Translations under genes and position numbers: made by a program | Notes under the pieces: generated by a model | The model's input: only the letters and a program-made list of their open reading frames with translations | Database searches by the model: none | Told to the model about the DNA's origin: nothing | Shown here: one piece after another, positions 3,853-54,204 of the stretch | Numbering within the stretch: position 1 is the stretch's first letter | How the letters are laid out: each line of letters opens with the position of its first letter | From: a virus | Virus record (IMG/VR): IMGVR_UViG_3300008121_000011 | Strand: one strand, 5' to 3' | Length of the DNA: 64,000 bases

Positions 3853-5739
3853 CTATAAAGTAGCTAATCCGATCATTGTATTTGGCTTAATTGGATTGTA
3901 ATTAATATACAAATCTGCTAAGCCGATCATTGAAGAAGTGGCGATCGGGTTGAAATTTATACGTAAATCTGCAAGCCCGATCATATTAAAATTGCCTAAC
4001 GTAATCGCAACGGGGCGCGATATTACCGTAGGGGTGCTAGCGGGGGCTGTACCCACTTCAATCCCGTTAAAAACTAGCCATGCTTCCGTCCCGTTTAAAC
4101 CCCATTTAATGCAATCTAATTTTAAGTAATAAATTAAATCTGCGTCTGTCACCGCTACATCCGCAAAAGGCTTAAAAGCACTACTTAAAGCTGTGTCAGT
4201 AATCGCGCCGCCAAATTGCTGACCATAAGCACGCCCTGATAATATGCGATTAAATCGAGAGCCATAATCAACTAATTGAGACTGATCAACTGTGTAGGGT
4301 ACATCTATTGTTCTTTGCCTTGGTCGGTACGGATCGGCGGCTAATTGCTGTGCAAATATTTCTGCTTTTAGCTGTACTTCTTCTGTAGTGTTTGTGCTTG
4401 CATCACCAAAATTTGTAGGTGGACCAGATGTATCTTTATCGTCGCTAAAGTTTGCCGCTGTAAATAGCACAGTAGGATTTTGATCGCCTAATGCCGTCCC
4501 TTTAAAAAGTACTCCTGCTGGTTCATGTCGAGTATAAGTTTTAATCCATTTTTGCGATCCTGTGTTTACCCATTTATAATCTTCTCTTTTAGCCGTAATT
4601 AGTACTGAAGGATTTTGATCGCCAAAAGTAGTTCCTTTTATAATTACCCCTGCTGGTTGAAAAGATGTTACAGTTTGAGCCGTAACAATTCCATTGACAA
4701 GAGTATAAGTATTTATGGATTTGTCAGATATAAATAGCACAGTAGGATTTTGATCGCCTAATGCCGTCCCTTTAAAAAGTACTCCTGCTGGTTCGCGTGT
4801 TTCTATGGTTTTTTCAAAAAATGTTGAACTTATCTCTGATGTGGTTATCACCCTTTTAGCCGTAAATAACGCGGTAGGATTTTGAGTCCCCAAGGTCGTC
4901 CCTTTAAAAAGTACCCCTGCTGGCTGTGTGTCAATTACATCGCTAGGTGCGGTGTCTACAGGTATTATTTCTTTTACCGTACCTGTAACTATTAATTTTT
5001 CAATTGGTTGTTCTGCGATATCACCGATCGCGTCCCATGATTTTTCGTCAGAGCCAATTATATAAGAAGCGATAGCACTGCCAGAATAGATAGTGCTGAT
5101 AGGCTCTGCGATTACCGTACCAGCGCTATTGCATCGCAAATAATAGCCGCCACTATCAGCGATCGCCCCTGCAAATCCAATAAAATTACCAGTTTGCTTT
5201 GGCAGCGGATAGGCGATCGGATAGGGGATGGAGTCAATCGAATTAGCAACGTCGATATAGTTAAGGATATTTGTGATTACGGTATTTCTTGCTAATGGTG
5301 TACCCGCCGTAATACCAGATATATCTTGATTTGGTTCGGGCGGAAAATTCTCTAAAGCTAATCGACAGCCAATTTCCAAAGATAATTCTAATATGCCATC
5401 CATATTCCTTTTTGGTTTTTGAGGCATTTTTAGCAAATGCAAAGCTTGCCCACTACAAGGCAGATAAGTAAGCGTTCCTGATGTATTTGCAGTTCGGATC
5501 GTGACTAGTTGACCCCGTTTCCATTGACTAGGGTTAAGTCTAGGATTAGGTGAACTTGGCACGGTTGAATCGTAGCGAGAAATTTTAAGATTAATGGAGC
5601 CTGTGACTGGCATTAATCCAGTCCCAACCTCATATTCTGGATAGCCCAAAATTATTCCAGAATCAAAGCTAATCCAGTTAGTCCAATTTTGCGATCCTAT
5701 AATTAATTCGCATCTGCGAGATGAGAGATTAAGCGTCAT
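3853..5739 (-). CDS. large tail-tip/baseplate-like protein with internal repeats
   Basis: 628 aa. Four copies of (E/Q)PAGV(L/I)(F/I)KGT.(L/F)G.QNP.(V/A)L(F/I). C-terminal triple MIGLA(D/T)L, the first two followed by xINxNPI. Confidence 0.55.
   Translation of the reverse strand: MTLNLSSRRCELIIGSQNWTNWISFDSGIILGYPEYEVGTGLMPVTGSINLKISRYDSTVPSSPNPRLNPSQWKRGQLVTIRTANTSGTLTYLPCSGQALHLLKMPQKPKRNMDGILELSLEIGCRLALENFPPEPNQDISGITAGTPLARNTVITNILNYIDVANSIDSIPYPIAYPLPKQTGNFIGFAGAIADSGGYYLRCNSAGTVIAEPISTIYSGSAIASYIIGSDEKSWDAIGDIAEQPIEKLIVTGTVKEIIPVDTAPSDVIDTQPAGVLFKGTTLGTQNPTALFTAKRVITTSEISSTFFEKTIETREPAGVLFKGTALGDQNPTVLFISDKSINTYTLVNGIVTAQTVTSFQPAGVIIKGTTFGDQNPSVLITAKREDYKWVNTGSQKWIKTYTRHEPAGVLFKGTALGDQNPTVLFTAANFSDDKDTSGPPTNFGDASTNTTEEVQLKAEIFAQQLAADPYRPRQRTIDVPYTVDQSQLVDYGSRFNRILSGRAYGQQFGGAITDTALSSAFKPFADVAVTDADLIYYLKLDCIKWGLNGTEAWLVFNGIEVGTAPASTPTVISRPVAITLGNFNMIGLADLRINFNPIATSSMIGLADLYINYNPIKPNTMIGLATL
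4461..4794. repeat. 64-bp perfect direct repeat (4461-4524 and 4731-4794) inside 3853..5739
   Basis: Both copies read taaatagcacagtaggattttgatcgcctaatgccgtccctttaaaaagtactcctgctggttc. Confidence 0.9.
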
Positions 5740-5815: not shown

Positions 5816-6550
5816 TCATATCTTCACCCCTGTCTCTTGCAACTCAAACACTGCCATTACATTACCAACCCCCGTGTCAGGGCTAAACGTTGGCTCAATA
5901 GGCATTTTTACCTGTAACTTAGGGTAATAATTTACCCCGCCGTTTCGCTGGAAGGGAATGCCAACAGATGATCGCGTTTTACTTGACGATGTTTTCCCCT
6001 CTTCAAAATACAGTGTGATTTCGTCAGTCAACACTAAGTATGGCGAACCTGTTAGAGTCTGAGCTTCACGCCGTATATTATTAGCTGTAGACCACATTGC
6101 GCTTAACTTTAGTGAATCAGCGATACTAACTTTTGCCTGAATATTATATTGCTGCGGATCTTCAAAACTAATGCCCGTATCGATGAAATTTCCGTTTACG
6201 CTAAAAGTCCCATTTCCTGATAACCGAGAACTTTGGCGGGGCGGGGGAGAATCAGAGCTAAAATTCCTAAACACAACACTCAAATAAACGCGGATCGAGT
6301 GCGTACCACTGCCACCGCTAAGACTTATAGCTGATCCCCCCTGCGTAGCTGATACGGTAATCGTTGCGCCTACACTGACCACATAATAGCTAGTATTAAG
6401 TGCTACTCCCGTTGGCAATGTGCCTGTGGTGGTAAAGCGCACGATATCGTCAACCGCAAATACTTGCGTCAATGGTGTTATGGCGCTACCACTAAAAGTA
6501 AAAGTATAGCTACGCCCAAAATATACGAGTGTTAAGTCGCCAACAGCCAT
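5816..6550 (-). CDS. tail structural protein (distal-tail position)
   Basis: 244-aa beta-rich ORF, the first structural gene after the island that follows the tape measure. Confidence 0.4.
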   Translation of the reverse strand: MAVGDLTLVYFGRSYTFTFSGSAITPLTQVFAVDDIVRFTTTGTLPTGVALNTSYYVVSVGATITVSATQGGSAISLSGGSGTHSIRVYLSVVFRNFSSDSPPPRQSSRLSGNGTFSVNGNFIDTGISFEDPQQYNIQAKVSIADSLKLSAMWSTANNIRREAQTLTGSPYLVLTDEITLYFEEGKTSSSKTRSSVGIPFQRNGGVNYYPKLQVKMPIEPTFSPDTGVGNVMAVFELQETGVKI

Positions 6551-6740
6551 GAGAGAGTCAGGGAATTTTGATTAATTATCGCACATCAATCTATGCTACA
6601 TTTTGATCGCGTTAAATTTCGATTGACCTAGATTCTAAGGAGAACCGAAAAGCCGATTAGTTTGATTTGTGGATTTGTAATGATTTTTTGAGAATTTGAG
6701 GCGATCGCGAGGTCGTCTTTTTTGTTGGATTTCTGATATT

Positions 6741-6758
6741 AAAAAGTGATAAAATATT
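6741..6758 (+). promoter_or_regulatory. shared extended -10-like motif aaaaagtgataaaatatt upstream of antirepressor gene
   Basis: Identical 18-mer also at 27303-27320 upstream of the second antirepressor-like gene; contains TGATAAAAT. Confidence 0.4.
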
Positions 6759-6817
6759 GGTGGCTTCGCGATGTTGACAGCATCCAAGCCCGTATAACCT
6801 ACACAACAGGACTACAC

Positions 6818-7672
6818 ATGTCTAATCTTATCAAGAATTGGAATGATCGCGCTATCCGTATTCGCAGCGATCGCTATGTTTCGTTAACCGATATGGCTCA
6901 AGCAAGCGGTAAGCAGTTTTCAGGTTGGAACCGTCTTGAGTCTACTAAAAATTATTTAAGGACGCTTTCGAGCGTTATGCAGATCAGCGCAACGGACTTA
7001 CTGCAAGTAATCCAAGGCGGTGATTCGCAAAACCAAGGCACATGGGGACACCCTAAAGTAGCGATCCGATTCGCTCAATGGTGCAGTGATGAGTTTGCGG
7101 TACAAGTAGACATTTGGACTGATGAACTCATGACGACTGGTAAAGTCGAGTTAGTTCCATCGCAACCCGCACTACCTCAAAACTATATTGAAGCTCTAGA
7201 AGCACATCTACAATCCGAGAAAGATAAAAAGATACTTGCAGAAGCTAACCAGAAATTGATCGCCGCCAATCAATCCCTAGAAATTGAAGTCCAGACTTTA
7301 GAGCCAAAAGCTGATCGCTATGATTTGATTTTGGCTACCGATGGATGGATGACGGGTGAAGAAATCTGCAAGCAATTGGCAATTCCCAAATTCTCTAATC
7401 GCAAGCTCTATGATATTTTGCGTCAAGAGAAAGTTCTATTTAAACGCCCTGATGGGACTAACTGCCCATACGCTGAATGGGTAAATGAGGGGCTTGCTAA
7501 GCTTCGTGATGGTCAATGCTTTGATGGTCGTATGAGATTTAGCCCTGCTTTCTCTTGGAAAGGATTGGATCGCATTCTTGACCTATTGCGTAAAAATCAA
7601 GTTATTCCCAAGGATAAGCAGTATCGATTTAACTTTGATTCTGACAAAATCGTAGCGATGAAGAGGGCTTAA
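6818..7672 (+). CDS. KilA-N domain / phage antirepressor (KilAC-type C-terminus)
   Basis: DRYVSLTDMAQ...WGHPKVAIRFAQWCSDEFAVQV is KilA-N-like. Central coiled coil, then a C-terminal antirepressor-like region. ATG 6818 preferred over the GTG at 6746. Confidence 0.7.
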   Translation: MSNLIKNWNDRAIRIRSDRYVSLTDMAQASGKQFSGWNRLESTKNYLRTLSSVMQISATDLLQVIQGGDSQNQGTWGHPKVAIRFAQWCSDEFAVQVDIWTDELMTTGKVELVPSQPALPQNYIEALEAHLQSEKDKKILAEANQKLIAANQSLEIEVQTLEPKADRYDLILATDGWMTGEEICKQLAIPKFSNRKLYDILRQEKVLFKRPDGTNCPYAEWVNEGLAKLRDGQCFDGRMRFSPAFSWKGLDRILDLLRKNQVIPKDKQYRFNFDSDKIVAMKRA

Positions 7673-7674
7673 TC

Positions 7675-8310
7675 ATGTTTGATAAAATTTATACAACTGA
7701 TGAACTTGTCAAAATCCTTAGAGAAGAGCAAATGGCTTGCGTCAATGGTGAGCGAACTTTCCCTATGCCTGACAATGCCGATGAAATCGCAAAGCAAACA
7801 CCACTAGGCTCTATTTTGGGAGCGCAAGGGCTGTTTGAGGTTGGTTGTTATCATGAGTTTCGGGATCAAGTTCAGGAATATCAACTCACAAATAATATTT
7901 CTGGGCTTGAAGTTGATGTTTGTACTATTGGTGACAAGCTCTATAGGTTCCCCCGTCCTATCCATCAGCTAGAGTTAACCAAAGATGATTACCAAGTCTT
8001 GAAGTTAGCCAAAGATGCTGTAGTAGAGGCTTTCCTTAACAGTGTTGATAAGTTCACCTATTTGAGCTTTAGCCATGAAGACAAATCTCATGCTCAATTT
8101 GATATCGAAACTACAAGCCAATATATTAGACACTTTTCTGAGTTTTGCGACTGGGCAGAAATTACAGGCGCTAAAGAATTTGGAATAACTCTTGTTCTTG
8201 GCTATGGCGATTATCACGAATCTGCATATATTGCTGAGCATTCAGAAGCTGCAAAATATTCTGATTCTATGTATTTCTGTGCTGCTAAAGCTTGCAATAT
8301 TAATGGGTAA
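7675..8310 (+). CDS. hypothetical protein in accessory island
   Basis: 211-aa ORF starting 2 nt after the antirepressor stop; no motif recognised. Confidence 0.45.
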   Translation: MFDKIYTTDELVKILREEQMACVNGERTFPMPDNADEIAKQTPLGSILGAQGLFEVGCYHEFRDQVQEYQLTNNISGLEVDVCTIGDKLYRFPRPIHQLELTKDDYQVLKLAKDAVVEAFLNSVDKFTYLSFSHEDKSHAQFDIETTSQYIRHFSEFCDWAEITGAKEFGITLVLGYGDYHESAYIAEHSEAAKYSDSMYFCAAKACNING

Positions 8311-8366
8311 ACCAATGTCTATCAAAATCAAATTCTCTTTGTTGCCTGAGTTGAGGAAAGCATATG

Positions 8367-8668
8367 CTTCCAATCAGCCGATCACTTAACCAGAAGTTTC
8401 ACCACTATCGCCTCTCTTCCAATCAGCCGATCGCTTAACCAAAAGTTTCACCATTCTGAGTTTCCAAAAATTGCAAATAACCTTGCCTTCCAATCAATTG
8501 ATCGTCTAACCACTAGTTTCACCATGAACTAGAGCGCCGCTTTACTGCCTGTATCGGTACTTCCAATCAGCCGATCGCTTAACCAAAAGTTTCACTGGAC
8601 AAAATGACAATTTTATATGTCAGCTACCTTCCTTCCAATCAGCCGATCGCTTAACCAGAAGTTTCACC
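8367..8668 (-). CRISPR. mini-CRISPR-like array: five 37-nt repeats with spacers of 12, 34, 36 and 35 nt
   Basis: Plus-strand repeats CTTCCAATCAGCCGATCGCTTAACCA(A/G)AAGTTTCACC at 8367, 8416, 8487 (degenerate), 8560 and 8632. Spacers are unique. The repeat at 8632-8668 overlaps the nuclease stop codon. Confidence 0.65.
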
Positions 8669-10396
8669 TAACAGATCCCAAAAACCAAGCTGAGAGCCAA
8701 TATTAGGATCGATTTGCGCGGATCGCTTACGAGATTGCAATTTAGAGTCGGCTTTAGATAGTGATTTTAAATCTTGCCATAGCTCAAAGTCTTGTGGTGA
8801 TTGGTTTTCAGAGTTTGCGCGAGTGGTTAGGTTGCGATCTAGCTGTAAATCATTGTCTGGTAAGGGCTTAAGCTTATCAGCTTCCAATCTTTTATCAGTA
8901 CTATTTACAGCCCCGCTTTCGCGGTTGATTGCGGGAGTTGTTTCTCCTCCCGATCCTTTCTTACTCTTGCGAGTCTTACTCGGTTGGCGCTTCTTCCCAT
9001 GCGTTGCATGATCCACGCCCTTAAATTCCCCCGATGAAGCGGGGTATGGTATCAGTACCAAGCCTTTAAAAGCAACATTACGGATAACGGTTGAGGCGTT
9101 GTTATCTGCGTTGTCACCATGACCACAATTCAAGCATTTAAAAACAGCTTGAGATGGTCGAAACTTTTCGGAATAGTAGCCACACTGAGAGCAACCTTGA
9201 GAAGTGTGCGGTGCGGGTACTTTCACAAATATTCTTTCTGATGCTTTAGATTTAGTCTCTAGCATCGTCTTTGTTTTACCGATCGCCACATCATGAAGCG
9301 ATTTATTTAAACCAGCTTTAGCAGCCGATCCGTTGGGTAGAAAAGCGCCATTTTCACCAGCTTTCGCCTTTGGTGCGCGTACCATATTTTTAACTTTGGT
9401 ATCTTCAATGGCGATGCTTTGATATTCACTTACATATTTTGAAGTGAGCTTATGGATAAAGCGATCCCTTTGCCTAGCGATTTTAAGATGCGCTTTAGCT
9501 AGTTTAGAGCGTTTAGCTTTTAGCCTGTTAGAGCCATCTTTTGAGCGAGAGATAGAGCGCTGAATACGAGCTAATTTCTTAGCTTGCATCTTTGCGTAAC
9601 GCTTAGATTTGTGTAGTCTCCCATCACTATCTGCAATAGGAGCGACTACACCAAAATCTAAACCTACTTCTTGCTTTTTTGCTGGTTTAACGGGCTTTAC
9701 ATCTACCGTGCTAGTGAATTGCACATAATAACCATCAGCTTTTTGGACGATGCGTACAATCGTATGATTGCCAGCATAGCGACGGTAGAATCCCTTGCAT
9801 TTGATTTGTCCTAGTCTTGGATAATCAATTAATGCATTGTCATTACCCAAGGGCAAAATATTAACGTATATCCGACCGTTGCCATTAGAAAAGCTTTCTA
9901 ATTTATCAGCTTTCTTTTTGTAACGTGGTCTGCCTTTTTTTCCCTTGCGGTACTGAGTCCATGCATCAATTAGGTTATCCACAACAGATCGCCGTGATTC
10001 GCCATCAATAGAGTGTAGAAAATCAGGACACCGCATATTAGCGATAAAGCGATAATTTTTAACGTGCTTAAATGGCTCTTCAATATCCCGATGTTTGCGG
10101 ATGTCGCATTTATCAGGATAGTAAGCACAGCAAAGCCCGTATTGATTATCAGGATTTACATACTCAATCCCGTCGATTTTGCATGATTTTCGCCATTGCC
10201 ATACTTCAGGACTATACTCTGCCCATTCTTGTTTTGCCCTCCAATAACGTTGCTGATCTTCCTCAAGCAGACTTAAACCAACATTCCATACCCATTTAAG
10301 TTGAGTAAGCCACAAATCAATTTGTGTGCTTTGCTCAATCGTGGGAGACAACTTAAATTCAGTTATCTTTTTAGTAGTGGCTTCATTGCTAGTCAT
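8651..10396 (-). CDS. TnpB/Cas12-like RuvC nuclease (type V-like effector candidate)
   Basis: 581 aa. TnpB-type N-terminus (FKLSPTIEQ...WVWN). RuvC-I GLDFGV, RuvC-II IAIEDT, Zn ribbon CSQCG...CLNCG, RuvC-III GDNADNNAS. About 130-aa low-complexity C-terminal tail. Confidence 0.85.
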   Translation of the reverse strand: MTSNEATTKKITEFKLSPTIEQSTQIDLWLTQLKWVWNVGLSLLEEDQQRYWRAKQEWAEYSPEVWQWRKSCKIDGIEYVNPDNQYGLCCAYYPDKCDIRKHRDIEEPFKHVKNYRFIANMRCPDFLHSIDGESRRSVVDNLIDAWTQYRKGKKGRPRYKKKADKLESFSNGNGRIYVNILPLGNDNALIDYPRLGQIKCKGFYRRYAGNHTIVRIVQKADGYYVQFTSTVDVKPVKPAKKQEVGLDFGVVAPIADSDGRLHKSKRYAKMQAKKLARIQRSISRSKDGSNRLKAKRSKLAKAHLKIARQRDRFIHKLTSKYVSEYQSIAIEDTKVKNMVRAPKAKAGENGAFLPNGSAAKAGLNKSLHDVAIGKTKTMLETKSKASERIFVKVPAPHTSQGCSQCGYYSEKFRPSQAVFKCLNCGHGDNADNNASTVIRNVAFKGLVLIPYPASSGEFKGVDHATHGKKRQPSKTRKSKKGSGGETTPAINRESGAVNSTDKRLEADKLKPLPDNDLQLDRNLTTRANSENQSPQDFELWQDLKSLSKADSKLQSRKRSAQIDPNIGSQLGFWDLLGETSG

Positions 10397-10460
10397 ATAC
10401 TGATAGTATCATAGTATTGATACTATTGACAAGCTTTTAATACAAGCTTTTAATTGTGAT
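10397..10460. promoter_or_regulatory. divergent promoter/operator region between nuclease and HTH genes
   Basis: Inverted ATAGTATCA (10403-10411) / TGATACTAT (10418-10426), each reading TGATACTAT (extended -10-like) toward its gene. TTGACA at 10427. Direct repeat aagcttttaat at 10431 and 10444. Confidence 0.45.
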
Positions 10461-10670
10461 ATGGCTTTAAGAAATATAGTTAAAGAATTTCTGGAAGAAA
10501 GAAAAATAACCGCTTATCAGTTCGTCAAAGAAACGGGGATAAGCGGTACAACTGGCTATGAGTTAGCGCGTAACCCTTGGCATATACCATCTACAGGCTC
10601 AATCGCTAAAATCTGCGATACCTACAAAATTCAACCATCTGAAATTGTTGTTTGGGTAGGGAATGAATAA
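10461..10670 (+). CDS. XRE-family helix-turn-helix regulator
   Basis: 69 aa; ITAYQFVKETGISGTTGYELARN is a classic HTH; divergent from the nuclease gene. Confidence 0.7.
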   Translation: MALRNIVKEFLEERKITAYQFVKETGISGTTGYELARNPWHIPSTGSIAKICDTYKIQPSEIVVWVGNE

Positions 10671-10740
10671 CAGCCGCATAAGCTAAAATCATGAAGCAAG
10701 GTTAAACCCTATTATTAGCGTTGAGTCAGCCCCTTGCAAC

Positions 10741-10773
10741 AAAAAAGCCGATCGCTTGTTGGTCGGCTTTTTT
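10741..10773. terminator. bidirectional rho-independent terminator
   Basis: A6, then gccgatc / ggtcggc stem (7 bp with one G-U), then T6. Confidence 0.6.
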
Positions 10774-11045
10774 GTTGCGTAATCTCCTATACAAAATCCT
10801 GCGAGATACTTGCAATAATTAACCAACCTATCAAAACAAGACTATGCAAGTTTGCGATATTTGCGGCGCTGAAGAGACTAATGGTAATATCTCCTTATCA
10901 GCCGACCGCAATCGGCATATATCTGTATCTAACAAGGACTTGCATTATACAAGGTGTTGCCAGATCGCTATCAGCCGAGGGCGCAAAGGTTGTTTGAATA
11001 GATTAGGAAAAGTTATAGATCTTTCTACTCTGTTTAGTGTTTAGA

Positions 11046-14000
11046 TTACAAACTCAACGCCGCCGCCCGTTGCATCTCTCTCTGAATCTGTAAAGCAATC
11101 TCTGTAGCATTACCACTACCAGTCGTCACGTTTACGTTATAGGTTTTATTGCCTCCTGAATTATTAAGCACGTTCTTGGTTTGATTTGCAGGTAGGACAT
11201 TAGAGCCTCTAGGCAATGTCACAAGCTCAGCACCTCGTTCTCCTACCAATGCCATACCGCCGCGGAAGTTTGTAACACCACTAGCAAAAGCAGGAACTTT
11301 GCCTACCCCTACAGCGCCGCTAAGTGGTGAAGCCCCTTTGGCGACTGATAGAGCGCTGATAATTTGCTGTGCAGACTTACCAAGGATTTGTTGTATCTCA
11401 ATCGCAGACGCTTTATCTAGCGCCCTTTGTTGCTCTTTAAATACTCTCTCACGTTCGATTTTCTGATCCTCAAACGCCCGATCAAGCGCTAGCTCTTTCT
11501 CTTTTTGAGCTAACTTAATCGTCTCTAGCTCAGCATCAGCAGCTTTCCTGAGTTCTAAATCTTCATTAGTTTGCTGTAGTTTTAAAGCACGTTCTTCATC
11601 GGCTTGCTGCTTTTTAATTGCTGCAAGTTCACCTCTCTCGAAAGCTAATTTACTAGCCTGTAATTCAGCTTCGATTTTTTGTTTTTCAGGTTTGAGTACA
11701 GTGTTCTCAAAAGCCAACTTAGCAGCGTTTTGCTCAGCATCAAAAGCCAACTTAGCAGCGTTTAATTCAGCTTCAAAAGCCTTGTCACTAGCTCTCTTGA
11801 CCTCAGTGCGCTTTACATCTTCAGCTTTATCGATTTCAAGCTGCTTGGCTTTGTTGGCTTTCTCCAATTCGTCTAAGGCAAGCTGTACTTTTTTCTGCTC
11901 TTCACCCGTAGCGATCGCGGATACTTGAGCTATTTGCTTGGCTTGAGCAACTAACTGTTCTTGGCTTTGTACTCCGCCCTGTCCTTGGGTCGCTGCTTGT
12001 GCTCTAATGCGTTCTTCTTCTTCGATTTGCGCCGCAATCCTAGCCCGATCTTCGGGCTTGGTAGTGGCGATCGCACCCTCATTACTGATTAATTGCTTAG
12101 CTTTTGACAAAGCCTCAGACGCTTGTTTGTCACGTTGAGCGCGTTGCGCTGCAAACAACTCATCATCTTTGCGTTGCTTTTCTGCCCTCTGTTCCTTAAG
12201 TGCATTTTGCTTATCGTCAAAATCCTGCTTGAGTTTGTTTAGTTTCTCCTCGTTTGCACGTTTCTTGGCATCAAGAGCATCCTCAAGTTGTAGTTTTTTG
12301 GCATTCTGAGTGTCGTCAAATGCGCGTTGCTTATCTTGTAAAGCTAGGGTTTGCTTTTCCTTTAGTGCCTCTGTTTCTAGCGCTTGCTTGCGATCTAGCT
12401 CACCTTTTGCGAGTGCATTTTTTTCTTCAATTGCTTTGATTGCATTGGCATTCTCACGATCTCGTTTGGCTTTGGTGTCTTCAAAGGATCGCTTGATATT
12501 TTTTTCTGCGTCTTGGTTTTGGGCTTCCCTGATTCTTTCAGCTTGCTTGCGTTGTTCATCGATCGCTGATGCTTCCTCTGCTGCTGTACTATTTACCGCA
12601 GCAATTCGATCTTCTAAAAGTTTTTTGCGTTTGGAGAATATTGCAATCTCATTGTTTAGAAGTTTTTGTAAAGCAGGGTTATCAGAAGCGCCTTGAGCTT
12701 GCGCTTTCAAGGAATTAATAGCTAAATCAATATTTTCAACCTGCTCCTTAGTTTCTTTATTAAATTTCGCTACTCCTTCGGCACCTAATCTATTTTTAGC
12801 CCCTGTAGCGTCAATGGCTACACCGTATTTACTCAATACGTTGAGTGATTCGTCGAGGGCTTTGGTATATTCCTTTTGATTTTCAGCAAATACAATTACT
12901 TCTTTTTGTCGCCCCCTTTGCGCCCCAAAAATATCAAAGGTTGCGCCTTGCCTTCCTAGCCCGTCATCAGTGGTTTGTTCAGGCGGCGCTAACTTACCTC
13001 GTTGCGCTTGTAATTCTGCTAATTTTTGCTTGTAATCCTGCAAGCTTTTTGTCGATTCCGAAACATTAAAAGCTGATGATAATTGCTTACCTACTGCAAT
13101 TAGTGGAATCGCAGCAATAGCAATTAACCCCAATGGCGTTGTCAGTGCATACGCCGCTACACTAGCAGCCGTGAGCGCACCTGTTAGCACTCCCGTACCT
13201 ACAGCAAGTGCCCCTTGAGCGATCGCCGCTAATCCCGCTTTAGTGGTTAGCAGTGTAAAGGCATTACTAGCTAGGGTAGTCGCAAAGGTGAGGGCATTAG
13301 CACCAAAAGCTGCAATACCAGCCGCCCCACCAAATAACTTTAACCCCCCAACAAAAGCTGGAGCTGCCGCGCCGATCGCTGTAAGAGCCGCACCTAATGT
13401 AGCAATACCGCCAGTTAGTCCAATAATCGCGCCTAAACCTACTTGAATTGGTGCAGGTAATTGGTTGAATACGTCAACAGCCGCGCCTACAACCGCTATT
13501 AATGGCGCAAATGCTGTTTGTGTACCACGTCCTAAATTTACTAAAGCTTCATTGATTTTGTTGATTGCTGTTGTTATTGTCCCTTCAGCAGATTTAGCAA
13601 CAACATCAAAACCAGTTTGCGCTTTGCCCGAAGCATTGCCAACAGCTACTAGATTCTCATTAAAGTTCTTAAGGTCGTCGTTAAGTAAAGGGACAACAGC
13701 AGTTAAACCATCAATATCTGTAAAGATTTTAGATAGCTGACTACTGGTGGTTAGGCCAGCCGCTTTTAATCGATTGAGTACACCTGTTAATCCTTCAGTT
13801 TTAAGCGTTGTAGCAGCGTTAGTGATCCCAATAGCCTCCAACACTTTTTGTGCGGATTGCGTGGGCTTGACCAAGTTGACAATCGCCTGTCTAATACCAC
13901 TAACCGCAGTCTCGGTTTTAACGCCTTTAATCGTAACGCTTGCTATGGCAGCGTTTAACTCGTTTAGTGTTACGCCCGCACTTGCAGCAATTGGCGCAAC

Positions 14001-14597
14001 TTTACCAAGCTGACCAGCAAATAATCCGATTGTAGTTTTACCTTTATCTTGGACTACTGCTAATTGGTCTACTACCTTAGCAGCATCGCTAGCAGCTAAA
14101 CCATAGGCATTCAAAATTGAGGTAGTTGCATCAGCTACCGTAGCTGTGTCAGTAAAACCAGCCTTAGCACCTAATACCGATACTCTGGCAATCTCTGATG
14201 CATCAGCAGCATTAATAAATCCACTAGATAGAATTTCGTATTGTGCTGTTAATATTTCGGTGCTGGTTACTTGATTGTTTAAATCCTTTGATAGCTTGAT
14301 AGCTGTATTAGCAAAAGCGTTAGATTGAGTAGATAATGTCGCTACTTTAGTTTTGGCAGTATCAAAAGCCAAAAAAGCTTGATTAGCAGCACTAGAAACT
14401 TGATTGAAAGTAGTACCAATCCGTTCTAATGTCTGCGATGTGTTTTGTAATTGCTCAGCTAAATCTCTAGCTTTCTCAGTAGTTGCACCAATAAATTGAT
14501 TAAAAGTTACAGGGCTAGCATCTTCAAATCCTTTTCCGATTTTTTCTAGATTGAGTTTATTGATTTCGCTGTAGTTTTTTGAGCGAAGCTTCAGCAA
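11046..14597 (-). CDS. tail tape measure protein
   Basis: 1183 aa. Tape-measure core-like region (LGAKAGFTDTATVADATTSILNAYGL). Gly/Ala hydrophobic segment, long Lys/Glu/Ala coiled coil, C-terminal GGMALVGERGAELV motif. Annotated start is TTG; see 14557..14736. Confidence 0.85.
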   Translation of the reverse strand: MLKLRSKNYSEINKLNLEKIGKGFEDASPVTFNQFIGATTEKARDLAEQLQNTSQTLERIGTTFNQVSSAANQAFLAFDTAKTKVATLSTQSNAFANTAIKLSKDLNNQVTSTEILTAQYEILSSGFINAADASEIARVSVLGAKAGFTDTATVADATTSILNAYGLAASDAAKVVDQLAVVQDKGKTTIGLFAGQLGKVAPIAASAGVTLNELNAAIASVTIKGVKTETAVSGIRQAIVNLVKPTQSAQKVLEAIGITNAATTLKTEGLTGVLNRLKAAGLTTSSQLSKIFTDIDGLTAVVPLLNDDLKNFNENLVAVGNASGKAQTGFDVVAKSAEGTITTAINKINEALVNLGRGTQTAFAPLIAVVGAAVDVFNQLPAPIQVGLGAIIGLTGGIATLGAALTAIGAAAPAFVGGLKLFGGAAGIAAFGANALTFATTLASNAFTLLTTKAGLAAIAQGALAVGTGVLTGALTAASVAAYALTTPLGLIAIAAIPLIAVGKQLSSAFNVSESTKSLQDYKQKLAELQAQRGKLAPPEQTTDDGLGRQGATFDIFGAQRGRQKEVIVFAENQKEYTKALDESLNVLSKYGVAIDATGAKNRLGAEGVAKFNKETKEQVENIDLAINSLKAQAQGASDNPALQKLLNNEIAIFSKRKKLLEDRIAAVNSTAAEEASAIDEQRKQAERIREAQNQDAEKNIKRSFEDTKAKRDRENANAIKAIEEKNALAKGELDRKQALETEALKEKQTLALQDKQRAFDDTQNAKKLQLEDALDAKKRANEEKLNKLKQDFDDKQNALKEQRAEKQRKDDELFAAQRAQRDKQASEALSKAKQLISNEGAIATTKPEDRARIAAQIEEEERIRAQAATQGQGGVQSQEQLVAQAKQIAQVSAIATGEEQKKVQLALDELEKANKAKQLEIDKAEDVKRTEVKRASDKAFEAELNAAKLAFDAEQNAAKLAFENTVLKPEKQKIEAELQASKLAFERGELAAIKKQQADEERALKLQQTNEDLELRKAADAELETIKLAQKEKELALDRAFEDQKIERERVFKEQQRALDKASAIEIQQILGKSAQQIISALSVAKGASPLSGAVGVGKVPAFASGVTNFRGGMALVGERGAELVTLPRGSNVLPANQTKNVLNNSGGNKTYNVNVTTGSGNATEIALQIQREMQRAAALSL

Positions 14598-22659: not shown

Positions 22660-22758
22660 CCGAGAGTAGCGGGAAGGTACTCGCGCCTAATAGCCATAAT
22701 TAGGTTTGTCAGATGGTGGCGATCGCTGATTTACTAGGTTCGATTCCTAGCTCTTGGA
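22660..22758 (+). ncRNA. tRNA-like element 1 (non-canonical, 99 nt)
   Basis: Acceptor CCGAGAG/CTCTTGG. D-arm gcgg-gaaggtac-tcgc. Perfect T-arm ctagg-TTCGATT-cctag. Anticodon-like arm cctaa(tagccataa)ttagg has a 9-nt loop, and there is a 29-nt extra region. Confidence 0.35.
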
Positions 22759-22779
22759 TTTTATGATAAACTTTAATTT

Positions 22780-22855
22780 CTGAGAGTGAGTCAGGTCTAC
22801 CATCTGAAACGTGAAGCCCGTCAGGTGTTAAGTGGTTCGATTCCACGCTCTCGGC
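22780..22855 (+). ncRNA. tRNA-like element 2 (76 nt, no canonical anticodon arm)
   Basis: Acceptor CTGAGAG/CTCTCGG (one G-U). T-arm agtgg-TTCGATT-ccacg, followed by a T-run. The interior folds as one interrupted hairpin rather than D and anticodon arms. Confidence 0.3.
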
Positions 22856-22960
22856 TTTTATGTTAAATTAAATATGCGATCGCGCATAGAGCAGAAAGTG
22901 CGTAGTAAATTTTTATAATTTCCTTCTGGTCGCCAAATAATTAATGGATGTTGCATAGGG

Positions 22961-26022: not shown

Positions 26023-26691
26023 ATGAATTACTGCTACCTTTGCGCCGCCCCTAACGCTGATAAACCGTTAGTTCTCAAAGATTCATTCACTGCACATAGT
26101 AGCGCTAGATGCCCTGAGTCTAAGTATTTATGCGATCGCTGTGCATGGGTGATTCCGTTAAGGGCTTTTTATTGGAATGAAGCCAAGGGGAAATACAGCA
26201 CATTATTTGCTAGGGGCTGGTCATGGCTCCTTTCTGCTGATGATGCGTATGGTTCTTATCCTAAATTTGGTAATCAACATACTGAGGGGGGGAACACGCT
26301 AGAAATAGTTGATCGCCTCCCCACACGCGCTCAAATCAGGACTTGGTTGCTTGATCCGCCAAAGCCGCCCTTTACTATTTGCATTGCGGAATCAGGGCAA
26401 AAACATATTTTGCCTTGGGCGCTAGAGGCAACTAATCGCGATTATTTCCCAGTGCAATTTGAGCTCGATACGTTGCATATATATCGATCTGCCTTTACGC
26501 ATTTACTCGCACGGTACGAGGAGCTTATGGCTATGGGATTTAGCAAAACTGAAATTAATTCTGGCAACTATCGCTCTGACAAATTAGCTAAGTGCATCAG
26601 TGAGTACGCAGCATGTGAGGCTGCGATCGCTGCTAAGCGTGGTAATCGCTTGCTAGATTTGGTTAGCTATGTTGCAAAAGTATCAGAGTAA
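26023..26691 (+). CDS. zinc-finger protein of unknown function
   Basis: 222 aa; N-terminal CYLC...CDRC pairs; PPFTICIAESGQKHILPWA core. Confidence 0.45.
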   Translation: MNYCYLCAAPNADKPLVLKDSFTAHSSARCPESKYLCDRCAWVIPLRAFYWNEAKGKYSTLFARGWSWLLSADDAYGSYPKFGNQHTEGGNTLEIVDRLPTRAQIRTWLLDPPKPPFTICIAESGQKHILPWALEATNRDYFPVQFELDTLHIYRSAFTHLLARYEELMAMGFSKTEINSGNYRSDKLAKCISEYAACEAAIAAKRGNRLLDLVSYVAKVSE

Positions 26692-44237: not shown

Positions 44238-44693
44238 ATGCAAGTAATAGCTTTTACAAACGATGAAGGCGGTGTATCTATCCTTACTCCTATCCTAGAT
44301 AGCGGGCTAACAATAGAACAAATTACAGAAAAAGATATTCCGCTACTCAATGGAGAGCCTATACCTTATCTGATTCTTGATGATTCGGAGTTACCCGATC
44401 GCATTGATCGCGATCGCTGGACAATTCAAGGCAACTCAGTAATTATTGATGAATCGATCCCTTTACCTGAAACCATCAGAGAGATTGATGCAAGGCGTTT
44501 AAGGCTTGCGTTGCATCAATTAAATCTTTTGGATACTGTCGAGACAGTGATTGCCGCATTAGGTCGTGATGCCCAAATCGAATGGGAGTATGCAACCATA
44601 ATTAAAGCGAACTACCCTTTGGTGATTTCCTTATCAAGTGAGCTGGGCTTAAATGTTAGCGAGATTTTTGATATTGCGATCGCAATTAAATAA
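44238..44693 (+). CDS. hypothetical protein (fibre-assembly position)
   Basis: 151-aa ORF, last gene of the plus-strand structural block. Confidence 0.4.
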   Translation: MQVIAFTNDEGGVSILTPILDSGLTIEQITEKDIPLLNGEPIPYLILDDSELPDRIDRDRWTIQGNSVIIDESIPLPETIREIDARRLRLALHQLNLLDTVETVIAALGRDAQIEWEYATIIKANYPLVISLSSELGLNVSEIFDIAIAIK

Positions 44694-45561
44694 AGCTTAG
44701 TTGTACTTGTTTGCTTGGCATTTTAGCGATCGCCTGTAAGTCTGAGCGGATATTCTTCGAGCGATCGCATATCCATAATTTTTCGGTACGCTTTGTATCG
44801 TGCTTAGTCCGCGATCGCCCATTTGATGCGGACATAGTTGCTTCTATCTCTACGCACTTTTGCGCCGATTTAGGTGCGATATTTTGATGGTAGTTGCTTA
44901 GCACATAGCTACTTTCGCAAGCGTCAAGAGCATCGCATAGGGCTTGATAATCGTCTAGGGTGTATCCGTCGTAATGCCCTTGATTTGTCTCAGGATATGG
45001 AGGATCTGCATAGATAAGACCATGTGGACAGTCCCAACGCTTAATAAAGTCAAGAGCATCCTCACAGCCAATATACACATCTCGCAGTCGCTCAAAACAT
45101 TCTGGCAAGCGATCGGCGCGATTTACCCATGTTGCTGCTGAGTTTTGATTGATTACTTGCGTTGCCCACCCTGCCCCAATTCCATTAGCAAAACTCATAT
45201 TGCATTGAATATAAGTAGCCCAAGCAACTTTTAGATCGCTGTACTCAGATGGATTGTTATAGATTTTTCGCGCCTCACGATACTCTTCTTGGCTGTAAGG
45301 AGTGAGTTCTATCCATCGTGCTAATTCGTTAGGTTGCTCTCTTGCCACGCGCCAGAACGTGATTAATTGCTTATTCAGGTCATTAATTGCTTCGCGGTAA
45401 TAGTGACTATTACCGCGATCTATTTTGCCTTTGGCATAGAGTACCGCGCCGCCTCCAAAGAACGGTTCTACATAAACGGTGTGTGGTATCGCCATGATGT
45501 GAGGGACTATTTGAGTGGCAATACGGTTTTTCCCGCCGTAATAAGAACAGGGTGTTTTCAT
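44686..45561 (-). CDS. dam: DNA adenine methyltransferase (Dam / D12 class)
   Basis: YYGGKNRIA, EPFFGGGAV (SAM-binding) and ADPPYP (DPPY catalytic) motifs. ATG 45561 forms an ATGA overlap with the upstream gene. Confidence 0.85.
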   Translation of the reverse strand: MKTPCSYYGGKNRIATQIVPHIMAIPHTVYVEPFFGGGAVLYAKGKIDRGNSHYYREAINDLNKQLITFWRVAREQPNELARWIELTPYSQEEYREARKIYNNPSEYSDLKVAWATYIQCNMSFANGIGAGWATQVINQNSAATWVNRADRLPECFERLRDVYIGCEDALDFIKRWDCPHGLIYADPPYPETNQGHYDGYTLDDYQALCDALDACESSYVLSNYHQNIAPKSAQKCVEIEATMSASNGRSRTKHDTKRTEKLWICDRSKNIRSDLQAIAKMPSKQVQLSFI

Positions 45562-46112
45562 ATAGTTACAGATACATTGCCAAGATGCCCACAGCAAGCC
45601 TTAAACTTTTTAGCTGTGAACTTGCCAAAATAAAATAAAGTCTGACTTGTGTCATTGCCAGATTTTTTCTTTTTGCCATCGTTCTTAGGGTTTGTGAACT
45701 CAAGCCGATGGTTAAAAGTCAAATAGCAAACAGAATAATTTTGAGCATCTAAATACCAATTACTAGAAGTATTACTATTCGTAAGCAGGAAAGTATTACC
45801 AATGTGAGCATAGGTTAAAACCATCTCTACAGCCCTCTCAATGTTGCCTTTGGAGTAAGGAGGGTTAACCCATTTATTTGGGTACTGACTCCAATCCTTA
45901 CTAAATGCGTCATCAGCTTTAGTCCAAAAGGTTTGAGCTTGGATGATTTGATTGGCTCTTAGGCAAGAGAACGGATCGAGGTGAAAACCTTTAACTAAGT
46001 CTCGAAATGGGGTTACTGCATATAGTGGAGAATAGTTCTCATCGTTTTCCTTATCTTCATCAGTATTAAGCACCAATGAAATATCAAATAAATTAGGCTG
46101 TAGAGCGATCAT
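45558..46112 (-). CDS. phage-type N6-adenine DNA methyltransferase
   Basis: 184 aa; WVNPPYS catalytic motif, LLTNSNTSSNWY, and a C-terminal pattern typical of the small phage Dam family. Confidence 0.75.
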   Translation of the reverse strand: MIALQPNLFDISLVLNTDEDKENDENYSPLYAVTPFRDLVKGFHLDPFSCLRANQIIQAQTFWTKADDAFSKDWSQYPNKWVNPPYSKGNIERAVEMVLTYAHIGNTFLLTNSNTSSNWYLDAQNYSVCYLTFNHRLEFTNPKNDGKKKKSGNDTSQTLFYFGKFTAKKFKACCGHLGNVSVTI

Positions 46113-47085: not shown

Positions 47086-47187
47086 TTAGCTGTTAGCCCA
47101 AAAAACACCAAAAAGAGGAACAACAAAAACTAAAACCGCAAAAAACAACCACATAAAAATGTCGAGAAATGCCCCAATGTTTTTCAT
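47086..47187 (-). CDS. 33-aa hydrophobic peptide
   Basis: MKNIGAFLDIFMWLFFAVLVFVVPLFGVFWANS; one transmembrane helix; downstream of the repeat gene. Confidence 0.3.
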   Translation of the reverse strand: MKNIGAFLDIFMWLFFAVLVFVVPLFGVFWANS

Positions 47188-47223
47188 GGAGTGCCAATTT
47201 TTCAGACATAATCTTTTCTTTCC

Positions 47224-47530
47224 TTGATAGTTGTTAGCCATAGCCATAGCCATAGCCAGAGCCATCGCCAGAGCCAGAGCCATCGCCATAGCCATAGCCA
47301 GAGCCATCGCCAGAGCCAGAGCCGTAGCCAGAGCCATAGCCAGAGCCATAGCCATAGCCAGAGCCATAGCCAGAGCCATCGCCATAGCCATAGCCAGAGC
47401 CATAGCCATAGCCATCGCCATAGCCAGAGCCATCGCCAGAGCCATAGCCATCGCCATAGCCAGAGCCATCGCCATAGCCATGGCCAGAGCCATCGCCAGA
47501 GCCAGAGCCAGAGTCAGAGTCATAATCAGT
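47224..47530. repeat. about 300 bp of imperfect hexanucleotide repeats (GCCATA/GCCAGA/GCCATC)
   Basis: Read directly in the sequence; at least four reading frames, two per strand, are open across it in the ORF track. Confidence 0.95.
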
Positions 47531-53616: not shown

Positions 53617-54204
53617 TTATTCAAAAAACCCGCATCCTAGATGTTTGCGACCTCCCAACCCTTTCTCTTGTAATACCAAAGACTCGTTAGGGCGCAAATC
53701 TGAAAACATTACAGGGTATACAGCACACGGCTGCTTTTTAATAATTAGCTGCTCTTTGCGCCCTATTGTTGGCAGTGTATTAATATCAAACTTTGCTAGT
53801 TGCTTGCCTAGCGACACCGCAAACCTAGTAAGATCGGGTTCACGATTGTTGTCGGTTTTAATTGATACCCAAGCCGCTAGATTCTCTTGAGATTTTAGCT
53901 CTGTGCCATTAACCAGCTTGAGTTTAATCAACTCTTTGCCTAAATGGATTTGACAATCAAAAAGCATCGTTAGCTCTGTAATTAAATCTTTGGAGCAACG
54001 TAGCTTTATATTGCTTTGAGTTAAACGTAATGTGCGATCGTCAAAAATATTTGTGTTACTGATTCTACCGATCGCCCACTCAGGGTTATCTTTGAACTTA
54101 GGAGATAAGCTGGTCAGCGCTGAATATAAGCAATAGTGATAATTCCGTGGGATTAACGCCCCTTCAATACTGAATAAAAATTCTATAAAATTGCAGTTAG
54201 GCAT
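53617..54204 (-). CDS. cas6: Cas6-family RAMP endoribonuclease (Cmx6-like)
   Basis: 195 aa; FSIEGALIPRNYHYCLYSALTS N-terminal pattern and C-terminal LQEKGLGGRKHLGCGFF glycine-rich loop. Confidence 0.65.
   Translation of the reverse strand: MPNCNFIEFLFSIEGALIPRNYHYCLYSALTSLSPKFKDNPEWAIGRISNTNIFDDRTLRLTQSNIKLRCSKDLITELTMLFDCQIHLGKELIKLKLVNGTELKSQENLAAWVSIKTDNNREPDLTRFAVSLGKQLAKFDINTLPTIGRKEQLIIKKQPCAVYPVMFSDLRPNESLVLQEKGLGGRKHLGCGFFE

Follow-up and report, generated by a model that had tools for sequence, protein, structure and literature searches.

A probable type V-U2 CRISPR-Cas cassette in an uncultivated tailed cyanophage, with a predicted guide scaffold in the 3' tail of the effector gene

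Type V-U loci, in which TnpB-like effectors lie beside CRISPR arrays (clustered short palindromic repeats that are regularly interspaced), were described in 2017 (PMC6293099, PMC12216341). V-U1, V-U3, V-U4, and V-U5 have since been renamed Cas12m, Cas12f, Cas12n, and Cas12k, and a 2024 review lists V-U2, or C2c8, without data on its protospacer-adjacent motif (PAM), size, or activity. One cyanophage, vB_AphaS-CL131 (CL131 below), carries a 'TnpB' beside a 10-spacer array that was assigned to V-U2 (PMC6293099). Here, we describe a locus of this kind in the viral record IMGVR_UViG_3300008121_000011, of which a stretch of 64,000 nucleotides (nt), referred to as the window, was analyzed. All positions follow the numbering of the window unless another locus is named, and the effector gene and its array are read on the minus strand. 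With a probability of about 70%, the locus represents a type V-U2 (C2c8-family) CRISPR-Cas system, organized as a cassette of a helix-turn-helix (HTH) gene, an effector gene, and an array in an uncultivated tailed cyanophage, in which RNA from the tail of the effector gene would serve as the guide scaffold. It is a divergent addition to a subtype that is known and experimentally uncharacterized, and whose presence in a cyanophage has already been reported.

The effector open reading frame (ORF) reads directly into the array. Its TAA stop codon (8653-8651) lies inside repeat 1 (R1), and the final 18 nt of the ORF, GGT GAA ACT TCT GGT TAA (GETSG and stop), are at the same time the opening 18 nt of that repeat. 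A scan for the repeat pattern returned four matches at up to three mismatches, with 0 expected from 100 shuffles, and R1, R2, R4, and R5 are near-perfect. The repeat folds on itself as a hairpin (-10.3 kcal/mol, z = -2.5). No other CRISPR-like array occurs in the 64-kb window, and the effector is present as a single copy. Scans of the 58 window ORFs that are 120 residues (aa) or longer found no member of the cas1, cas2, cas4, or Y1 transposase families; a family scan of window ORFs of this size returned no serine recombinase or serine transposase, the window ORF scan returned no Tn7 families, and an Rfam scan of 8000-10800 returned nothing relevant. A sequence-only reading of the window, made earlier without database searches, had described the ORF, the stop codon within a repeat, the five 37-nt repeats, the spacers of 35, 36, 34, and 12 nt, and the 18-nt overlap. 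All of these match the sequence, the overlap being read directly from the DNA. The same reading reported no tnpA, cas1, cas2, or cas4 nearby, which holds for the ORFs scanned, with the correction that a type IV module, including cas6 and csf1, is encoded elsewhere in the window. The tail RNA, the conserved upstream HTH gene, and the type IV and cas6 genes were absent from that reading.

The closest described counterparts are V-U2 loci and CL131 in particular. Shared features include the best profile match, a TnpB-sized effector with an intact RuvC domain, a cyanobacterial or cyanophage origin, an array of 36-37 nt repeats directly 3' of the gene and in its orientation, and the absence of further cas genes beside it. 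Once the CL131 tail is read in frame, its layout equals that of the window locus. However, the window effector is only 35-43% identical to that of CL131 and to named C2c8 proteins, and the window locus belongs to a separate sub-lineage with its own repeat. Unlike CL131, it displays a self-folding repeat hairpin, a divergent HTH_26 gene, and a stop codon inside repeat 1. The published description of CL131 is silent on the ORF tail, the anti-repeat, and array continuity. Cas12n (V-U4/C2c9) offers another parallel, as the DNA that encodes its disordered C-terminal tail also contains the trans-activating CRISPR RNA (tracrRNA) (PMC12216341). The window tail appears to follow this Cas12n-like guide architecture, with a predicted disordered tail encoded over a structured RNA. 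Cas12n nevertheless belongs to another protein family, corresponds to the second-best profile (Cas12u4), and comes from Actinomycetota; moreover, its array is separate from the ORF, whereas the window ORF reads into repeat 1. The sequence-only reading had set TnpB apart from Cas12 effectors on the ground that the latter use separate arrays. That contrast is not a clean one, since the Cas12n tracrRNA overlaps its ORF (PMC12216341).

TnpB proteins (ISDra2, ISFba1; IS200/IS605 and IS607 elements) have the closest solved folds, and in these elements the 3' end of the ORF is shared with the omega-RNA, or right-end RNA (reRNA), scaffold, directly after which comes the guide. Single-repeat V-U2 relatives reproduce this scaffold-guide layout exactly. 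Unlike TnpB elements, the window locus is without TnpA and not multicopy, its guide-proximal segment is reiterated as an array with exchangeable spacers, and its effector carries a cysteine-bearing insertion of ~40 aa in the REC region (aa 58-99) together with a tail of ~130 aa. TranC systems (LaTranC; CauTranC9 from a Caudoviricetes genome) likewise combine TnpB-like effectors with arrays, some of them phage-borne, and have an omega-RNA split into tracrRNA and CRISPR RNA (crRNA). LaTranC is a detectable structural relative of the window effector, but the similarity in sequence is weak (2e-5). Cas12k (V-K/V-U5) shares the cyanobacterial setting, short arrays, and absence of adaptation genes; it is, however, RuvC-dead, located in Tn7-like transposons, and served by a separate tracrRNA gene, none of which is true of the window locus. 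Cas12k repeats end in ...TTGAAAG, similar to the ...TTGGAAG of the window repeat. Taken against this background, the earlier proposal of a TnpB-Cas12 intermediate carried by a cyanophage retains its substance, as the effector is TnpB-derived, apparently nuclease-competent, and provided with its own mini-array. Its implied novelty does not hold, because such a compact intermediate is what defines the type V-U systems, V-U2 is known, and the CL131 locus has been published.

Four V-U2 lineages were compared: group A (the window and close relatives, including loci L002, L019, and L029-L039), group C (L005-L009, L015, and L016), group D (L010-L014 and CL131, the latter as L022), and cyanobacterial metagenome-assembled genomes (L020, Nostoc; L021, Pantanalinema). 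In every lineage examined, the beginning of the array coincides with the 3' end of the effector gene or falls within it. In groups A and C and in L020, repeat 1 contains the stop codon; in L021, a single repeat-like element does so, and in group D, including CL131, the stop codon precedes repeat 1 by 6 nt. In CL131 (MG209611.1, 4817-5099, minus strand), the published coding sequence of a 466-468 aa 'transposase' ends at a CGA-to-TGA nonsense codon, which together with an 8-nt deletion (a frameshift) leaves the tail untranslated. The tail DNA is retained, with an anti-repeat, CAGCTTACTCTCTGG, an ending of ...HTQLTLW-stop, and the 6-nt gap to repeat 1. The abutment of ORF and array is a family-wide trait of V-U2 and is not peculiar to the window locus.

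Array length varies from a single unit to dozens of repeats. The omega-RNA layout, in which flanking DNA directly follows a lone repeat-like unit, occurs in L021, L029/L030, L031, and L032, close relatives of phages that bear arrays; the stop codon and this unit overlap, and the gene that follows in L032 begins 31 nt further on. Arrays of 20 to 32 repeats are found in L006, L008, L016, and L019, the last of which (Pseudanabaena sp. FACHB-1998 contig39, 7717-9997; 78% identity) holds 32 repeats with spacers of 34-38 nt. Spacers are unique, have a size and regularity typical of CRISPR, and differ in content between related genomes: the effectors of the window and L002 are 92% identical, and the two arrays have zero spacers in common. 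L010 and L013 have their three distal spacers in common, and their arrays diverge only next to the ORF, a polarity that would be expected with the end of the ORF as leader. Within IMG/VR, the window repeat family is confined to four contigs that carry this effector, and the same array, with one single-nucleotide polymorphism (SNP) in S2, is present in two IMG/VR contigs.

The constraint on the last ~400 nt of the ORF is that of a folded RNA rather than of a protein. The RNA alignment comprised the last ~480 nt of the ORF plus R1 from 12 group-A loci, and 48 pairs in 9 helices were fixed and counted. The predicted scaffold, contiguous with R1, comprises eight hairpin helices, and two of its hairpins are GNRA-capped. 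Standard pairs occupy 96.9% of cells, compared with 32-45% in slid controls, in which the 3' partners were shifted by 1-3 columns. Compensatory changes, affecting both sides of a pair, were observed at 17 of the 48 pairs, against 7.0 ± 1.5 in shuffles (0 of 500 reached 17) and 1-3 in slid controls, the structure having been predicted and counted on the same alignment. For example, CCCCG...CGGGG is replaced by CTCTG...CAGAG in helix H1, CGGGAG...CTCCCG by CGGTAG...CTACCG or CGAGAG...CTCTCG in H2, and CCGC...GCGG by CCGT...ACGG in H3; several of these changes are non-synonymous.

Substitution rates point in the same direction. Compared with the core, the tail has a rate of synonymous substitution (dS) that is 2-5 times lower; the core and aa 446-500 show dS of 0.89 and 0.25, respectively, against L019, and of 1.25 and 0.28 against L037. 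The ratio of non-synonymous to synonymous rates (dN/dS), about 0.1 in the core, climbs to 0.3-0.9 in the tail. Low tail dS combined with raised dN/dS is the signature of a functional RNA that overlaps a reading frame under weak constraint. A covariance model built on H0-H3 gave weak, position-consistent matches elsewhere (E 0.001-0.09); nearly all are on the strand of the effector gene and within the tails of group C and D loci, CL131, and L026. Conservation of the tail as protein was considered and rejected for most of its length on account of its dN/dS, indels, and disorder, with the exception of the terminal motif discussed below. In L032, a 66-nt in-frame insertion (about 6360-6425; columns 131-196 of alignment A4) duplicates the H2+H3 module, and the duplicated H2 stem is a compensatory variant, CGAGGG...CCCTCG.

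The effector itself is a selectively maintained and apparently catalytically competent member of a divergent V-U2 sub-lineage, as judged from profiles, fold, invariant residues, and low core dN/dS. The top PADLOC subtype is Cas12u2 (348.6 bits, 1.9e-104, profile positions 2-442 of 445), followed by Cas12u4 (182 bits, 3.7e-54) and Cas12u3 (56 bits). The top NCBIfam model is V_cas_c2c8 (2.2e-87), whose 294.1 bits stay below the curated cutoff of 350. The generic guided_TnpB model reaches 189.5 bits and passes its cutoff of 100, and IS200_TnpB reaches 159 bits. Pfam recognizes OrfB_IS605 and Cas12f1-like_TNB domains. In a collection of 5.8 billion proteins, about 11 clusters, all metagenomic, are 67-90% identical to the effector; beyond them, identity falls to 43% or less, and proteins named 'type V CRISPR-associated protein C2c8' (Pantanalinema, Nostoc) stand at 35-38%. 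The top match in the phage collection is the V-U2 effector of CL131 (35% identity, 3e-63). A metagenome scan with protein alignment yielded 6 loci only, mostly partial.

The RuvC residues D247 (GLDFGV), E331 (IAIEDT), and D431 (NADNNAS) and the zinc-ribbon cysteines C402, C405, C421, and C424 are intact and invariant across 40 relatives, and the sequence-only reading had noted the three RuvC acidic positions as apparently intact. An AlphaFold2 model built from 40 sequences gives a core (aa 5-454) with a predicted local distance difference test score (pLDDT) mostly of 80-95; confidence is low for an insertion at aa 58-99, and in the tail (aa 455-581) pLDDT stays below 35. The tail, from about residue 455 onward, is accordingly predicted to be disordered. 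The best Foldseek matches are TnpB of ISFba1 (8IAZ) and ISDra2 (8H1J, 8EXA), with target-normalized template modeling (TM) scores of 0.74-0.78, followed by Cas12p, LaTranC, and Cas12f. The searches that the earlier reading had proposed place V-U2/C2c8 first by profile and TnpB first by fold. No solved structure of a close effector relative was found, and the sequence match to Cas12n (PDB 9J09; 7e-19) is limited to residues 264-438, the RuvC half. Core dN/dS is 0.10-0.13 against seven relatives and 0.10 against the closest one, which indicates strong purifying selection. Within the REC-region insertion (aa 58-99, about 10225-10100), C90 is invariant and C97 nearly so in a 16-sequence alignment (A1), and this insertion may be a small metal-binding element specific to this effector family.

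The evidence for a tracrRNA-like duplex differs between lineages. The group D tail contains an anti-repeat of nearly full length, located 133-165 nt upstream of repeat 1. For L010, its pairing energy is -33.3 kcal/mol against -20.6 ± 2.2 in shuffles, and the anti-repeat covaries with the repeat across L010, L014, and CL131 (CCAATCA/TGATTGG in L010, CCAACTA/TAGTTGG in CL131). At the position where these three loci carry the anti-repeat, the window has a CCAATCA element, which is kept in most group-A loci and may act as a short anti-repeat. RNAduplex comparisons of both strands of 8250-10480 gave nothing above shuffles except self-pairing between repeats, and a scan for anti-repeats restricted to the window tail gave -24.0 kcal/mol against -23.1 ± 1.7 in shuffles. 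A longest-complement test was not significant, with p of about 0.007-0.5 per locus and means of 6.1 nt within and 5.3 nt across lineages. A repeat-like segment, GATTGGAAG...GCTGATAAGCTTAAGCC (about 8885-8845), was rejected as an anti-repeat: it is deleted in 7 of 12 relatives, one of which, L002, has a healthy 7-repeat array.

The C-terminal motif QLGFWD is the part of the tail that may be retained as protein. It follows a linker of ~115 disordered residues, and Q569, L570, W573, and D574 are invariant in 16 sequences. The family motif, Q-[LFI]-x-[LIF]-[WF]-D, takes forms such as QLSLF, QLTLF, QLTLW, and QLTIW in relatives; it is found in most long-tailed V-U2-like proteins (L005-L021, P0018, P0019, and others) and is absent from TnpBs of ~400 aa. 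By sequence alone, it resembles the beta-clamp-binding peptide (consensus QL[SD]LF / QLxLxL). QLSLF and the term clamp-binding motif reportedly co-occur in several papers, one of them on a transposase-clamp interaction (PMC4549789), the match being one of terms only. No paper linking the sliding clamp to Cas12 or TnpB was among the top-ranked literature results. Selection on the protein is suggested by the W/F exchange between the motifs of relatives, synonymous variation at motif positions 3 and 4, and a tail frame that stays open despite many multiple-of-three indels in 12 loci. Signs at the nucleotide level are also present: the motif leucine codon is CTT in six of six lineages, the motif bases lie within a predicted long-range helix, the distance from motif to repeat 1 is fixed, and CL131 keeps the motif DNA even though it is untranslated. 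In L020 (NZ_JBALFY010000093.1), three degenerate repeats are followed directly by caaCAGCTTACGCTTTGGctttGGGAT (5495-5530), in which the pre-array motif occurs a second time; this copy may be a duplication remnant or a self-matching guide.

In the proposed mechanism, a single transcript starting upstream of the ORF would serve as messenger RNA, guide-RNA scaffold (the ORF tail), and precursor of the crRNAs. The scaffold, repeat 1, and spacer 1 would form a contiguous omega-RNA-like guide, and the downstream repeat-spacer units would be served by the scaffold in trans or by the hairpin of the repeat itself. The resulting ribonucleoprotein would bind, and probably cut, DNA that matches a spacer beside a PAM or target-adjacent motif (TAM). 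New spacers would be added at the ORF-proximal end, presumably by Cas1-Cas2 of the host, with the end of the ORF doubling as leader. In the phage, the system would likely act against competing phages or other mobile elements, or would help the cassette to be retained and to home. A wider idea is held more tentatively. The V-U2 loci may constitute a living transition series from TnpB to CRISPR in phages, in which the 3' end combines tail, scaffold, and leader, arrays extend from a single guide to 32 repeats, and the repeat is met by a full anti-repeat in trans or by an internalized hairpin, while QLx[LIF][WF] might tether the effector to the sliding clamp of the host and direct it to replicating DNA. 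Neither the transition series nor the clamp tether was found described for V-U2 in the literature searched.

Several observations weigh against the assignment of this locus to a functional V-U2 system. Besides the sub-cutoff C2c8 score and the use of one alignment for both folding and counting, no experimental characterization of V-U2 was found in the literature searched. The spacer search suggested by the sequence-only reading yielded no protospacer: about 120 spacers compared by local BLAST with the window and 680 kb of related loci gave self or array matches only, 41 group-A spacers had no protospacer among INPHARED phages, and an exact-seed scan of IMG/VR with 24-mer seeds of S1 and S2 returned no target. 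The S1 seed matched only contigs of this phage itself, and the S2 seed matched nothing because of a SNP there in the IMG/VR copy. As no protospacer was found, no PAM or target class could be derived from the spacers. Group A shows only complements of 6-7 nt between tail and repeat (TAACCA/TGGTTA, CCAATCA/TGATTGG), which do not exceed shuffles, and close relatives carry a single repeat only. The array is the same in three samples, save for one SNP, and looks static; R3 is degenerate, with the ACTAGTGG signature of the terminal repeat of L002, and one spacer is a 12-nt remnant that resembles the post-array flank of L002. Such a static, partly eroded array means that the window copy may be idle. 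In its strongest form, this view holds that the effector is intact and that the array and guide system have become a decaying relic in this phage, and the failure to find spacer targets would fit it. Core dN/dS of 0.10 even against the closest relative, four near-perfect repeats, and a reading frame kept open through the many indels of 12 loci make such decay decidedly unlikely. A purely regulatory role has more in its favor and is nonetheless judged unlikely. Here, guides would repress transcription or replication by binding alone, as in Cas12m, Cas12c, or TldR, or would direct the cassette's homing or retention, the ancestral task of TnpB. Arrays that are short, static, or reduced to a single guide in several phages, the conserved HTH partner, and the lack of virus or plasmid protospacers in the INPHARED and IMG/VR seed scans agree with this explanation, and activity at replication forks would be in keeping with the clamp-binding-like motif at the C terminus. 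For CL131, which had one weak spacer match, a gene-regulatory role was proposed by its authors (PMC6293099). On the other hand, the RuvC triad is invariant across 40 sequences, unlike in Cas12k, Cas12m, and TldR, and the long, fast-turning arrays of relatives fit immunity-like targeting better than fixed regulation.

The array could also belong to something other than the effector. The window encodes Csf2, Csf3, Cas11, Csf1, and Cas6, identified by PADLOC and Pfam scans of window ORFs, which make up a type IV-B-like module without an array of its own; Cas6 might process the V-U2 array for use by Csf1, Cas11, Csf2, and Csf3, or both systems might share it. The repeat forms a hairpin and ends in ATTGGAAG, which we take to resemble the 8-nt class-1 tag ATTGAAAG, a point counted for this explanation. 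The type IV genes, however, lie 17 to 45 kb from the array. IMG/VR holds 23 contigs that carry csf2 at 90-97% identity; none of the 23 has an array within 8 kb of csf2, and the V-U2 repeat family is absent from all csf2 contigs except those already known to carry V-U2. These contigs are the reason for assigning the array to the V-U2 effector. Each V-U2 lineage, moreover, has its own repeat, always abutting the effector ORF, whatever else the phage carries, and use of the array by the type IV complex is regarded as very unlikely. An ordinary TnpB insertion sequence of the IS200/IS605 or IS607 type, whose repeats would be copies of the right end or omega-RNA and whose spacers would be fixed flanks, is hardly tenable. 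The generic TnpB model and the closest solved folds speak for it, as do the omega-RNA layout of L021, L029, L031, and L032, with one scaffold and one adjacent 'guide', and the occurrence of the HTH-effector-repeat cassette in unrelated phage contexts. Against it stand the single copy in the window, the lack of a Y1 or serine transposase among window ORFs of at least 120 aa, a V-U2 profile score far above those of the IS200 and IS607 TnpB models, arrays of up to 32 units with regular spacers, spacers that are unique and wholly different between 92%-identical relatives, and a repeat that occurs in IMG/VR only in effector-linked arrays. The sequence-only reading had itself named such a right end as the case that would overturn it, and this case is largely refuted by the family-wide overlap of ORF and array, the variable spacers, and the effector-only repeat.

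The window is a near-identical strain of IMGVR_UViG_3300042295_001683 (73.4 kb), with an identical effector protein and a few SNPs in the array region. A DNA search of 8300-10700 against INPHARED gave no match, so that the locus is not one of a sequenced isolate. The phage context noted earlier is borne out by the tape-measure and anti-repressor genes (Table 1), the primase/helicase also encoded in the window, and the near-identical IMG/VR contig. A divergent HTH_26 gene lies upstream of the effector gene here and in L029, L030, L032, L038, and L039, and this conserved partner of the effector lineage likely encodes a regulator. The gap of 64 nt between both genes holds a sigma-70-like promoter candidate; in the sigma-70 and terminator scan, the number of sites did not exceed shuffle expectation or background. 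An HTH partner as a family-wide feature of V-U2 was rejected, as it is absent in groups C and D.

Between otherwise unrelated phage contexts (L029 and L031, near a terminase), DNA homology covers exactly the stretch from the HTH gene to repeat 1, which indicates that the HTH gene travels together with effector and array as one cassette. In the window, the cassette is inserted after the tape-measure gene and before the tail gene that comes next to it, and L002 and L032 have it at this site too. The flanks of L019 have no DNA similarity to the window outside the effector and repeat 1, and the size of its contig39 (71.4 kb) suggests a co-assembled phage or episome. From the 78%-identity copy in this Pseudanabaena sp. 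FACHB-1998 assembly, a Pseudanabaena-type host is inferred for the window phage. The DNA after the last L010 repeat (5702-5735) recurs upstream of the effector gene in L014 (981-1014) and about 400 nt beyond the CL131 array (L022 3618-3651), which suggests that the effector-array cassette was rearranged or moved relative to its flanks in L010, L014, and CL131. Across several unrelated phage contexts, genes of KilA-N/Bro-N anti-repressor type lie near V-U2 cassettes, namely in the window, L031 (3467-4321), L033 (851-1528), and CL131 (gp062).

Table 1. Coordinates of the effector locus, its predicted RNA elements, and other genes; positions refer to the window unless a locus is named
Feature	Position	Strand	Remarks
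Type V-U2 (C2c8-like) effector gene	8651..10396	minus	581 aa, ATG start; core aa 1-454, tail aa 455-581
Pre-array motif CAGCTTGGTTTTTGGGAT	8675..8692	minus	encodes QLGFWD (aa 569-574); ends 6 nt upstream of R1
CRISPR array	8367..8668	minus	5 repeats of 37 nt; repeat-pattern scan and sequence reading
Repeat R1	8668-8632	minus	
Spacer S1	8631-8597		35 nt
Repeat R2	8596-8560	minus	
Spacer S2	8559-8524		36 nt
Repeat R3	8523-8487	minus	degenerate, 76-79% identity
Spacer S3	8486-8453		34 nt
Repeat R4	8452-8416	minus	
Spacer remnant between R4 and R5	8415-8404		12 nt
Repeat R5	8403-8367	minus	
Predicted structured RNA, omega-RNA/tracrRNA-like scaffold	8669..9063	minus	inside ORF 3' end, contiguous with R1; RNAalifold, 12 loci
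Helix H0	9059-9048	minus	
Helix H1	9044-9029	minus	
Helix H1b	9019-8986	minus	three stacked helices
Hairpin with GCAA loop	8974-8963	minus	
Helix H2	8955-8927	minus	
Hairpin H3	8924-8913	minus	GAAA loop
Tentative long-range helix	8793-8780 with 8699-8687	minus	
CCAATCA element, candidate short anti-repeat	8797..8803	minus	complement of repeat 3' part TGATTGG; tentative
Sigma-70-like promoter candidate	10403..10432	minus	TTGTCA, 18-nt spacer, TACTAT, upstream TG; consensus scan only
HTH_26 (Cro/C1/XRE-type) gene	10461..10670	plus	69 aa; divergent from effector; Pfam HTH_26 1.5e-11
Single-repeat unit, L029/L030	6657-6693		
Single-repeat unit, L031	about 6577-6612		
Single-repeat unit, L032	6702-6738		
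Single-repeat unit, L021	about 7650-7690		
Tail protein	5816-6550		
KilA-N/Ant anti-repressor	6746-7672	plus	
Tape-measure protein	11046-14597		phrog_1533, 7.5e-41; closest to cyanophage tape-measure proteins
Csf1/Cas8	26023-26691	plus	6.6e-27; about 29 kb from other type IV genes
Cas6	53617-54204	minus	5e-35
BrxP-like gene, probably PAPS-reductase/CysH-like	54546-55214	minus	BrxP 9.3e-13
Csf3/Cas5	55202-55888	minus	2.2e-47
Csf2/Cas7	55881-57086	minus	3.7e-43
Cas11	57079-57603	minus	5e-13

The Pfam PAPS_reduct match (1.8e-17) came only from a pooled scan of all window ORFs. At 47235-47513, a tandem TAGCCA hexamer of about 46 copies with a 42-nt super-period lies inside a 145-aa minus-strand ORF (47086-47523). 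A type II or orphan DNA methyltransferase is encoded at 44686-45597 (PADLOC MTase_II, 1.1e-29), and additional Pfam matches include a D12 class N6-adenine methyltransferase, Dam, dCTP deaminase, radical SAM, and a KaiC-like ATPase. ARAGORN found no transfer RNA genes in the window, despite a TΨC-like direct repeat at 22737-22867.

Among V-U1 to V-U5, V-U2 alone has neither a named Cas12 counterpart nor an experimental characterization in the literature searched. Beyond the published findings that were located, the present comparison adds the family-wide continuity of ORF and array, a covariation-supported tail RNA, the series from a single guide to 32 repeats, and the clamp-like motif, which together provide a good entry point for experiments. 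The window copy and its dozen close relatives form a compact and testable example, with regulator, effector, scaffold, and guides in about 2.3 kb, for which the comparative data predict the location of the scaffold RNA and which helices matter. The L010/CL131 sister lineage has a clear tracrRNA:crRNA duplex and is suited to the design of single-guide RNAs. One cyanophage lineage, moreover, has V-U2 and type IV as two systems of CRISPR type and a single array. If active, the V-U2 effector would add a nuclease core of ~450 aa to the set of miniature editors, and the family would offer a natural series for the evolution of omega-RNA into arrays and for spacer gain without Cas1-Cas2 of its own.

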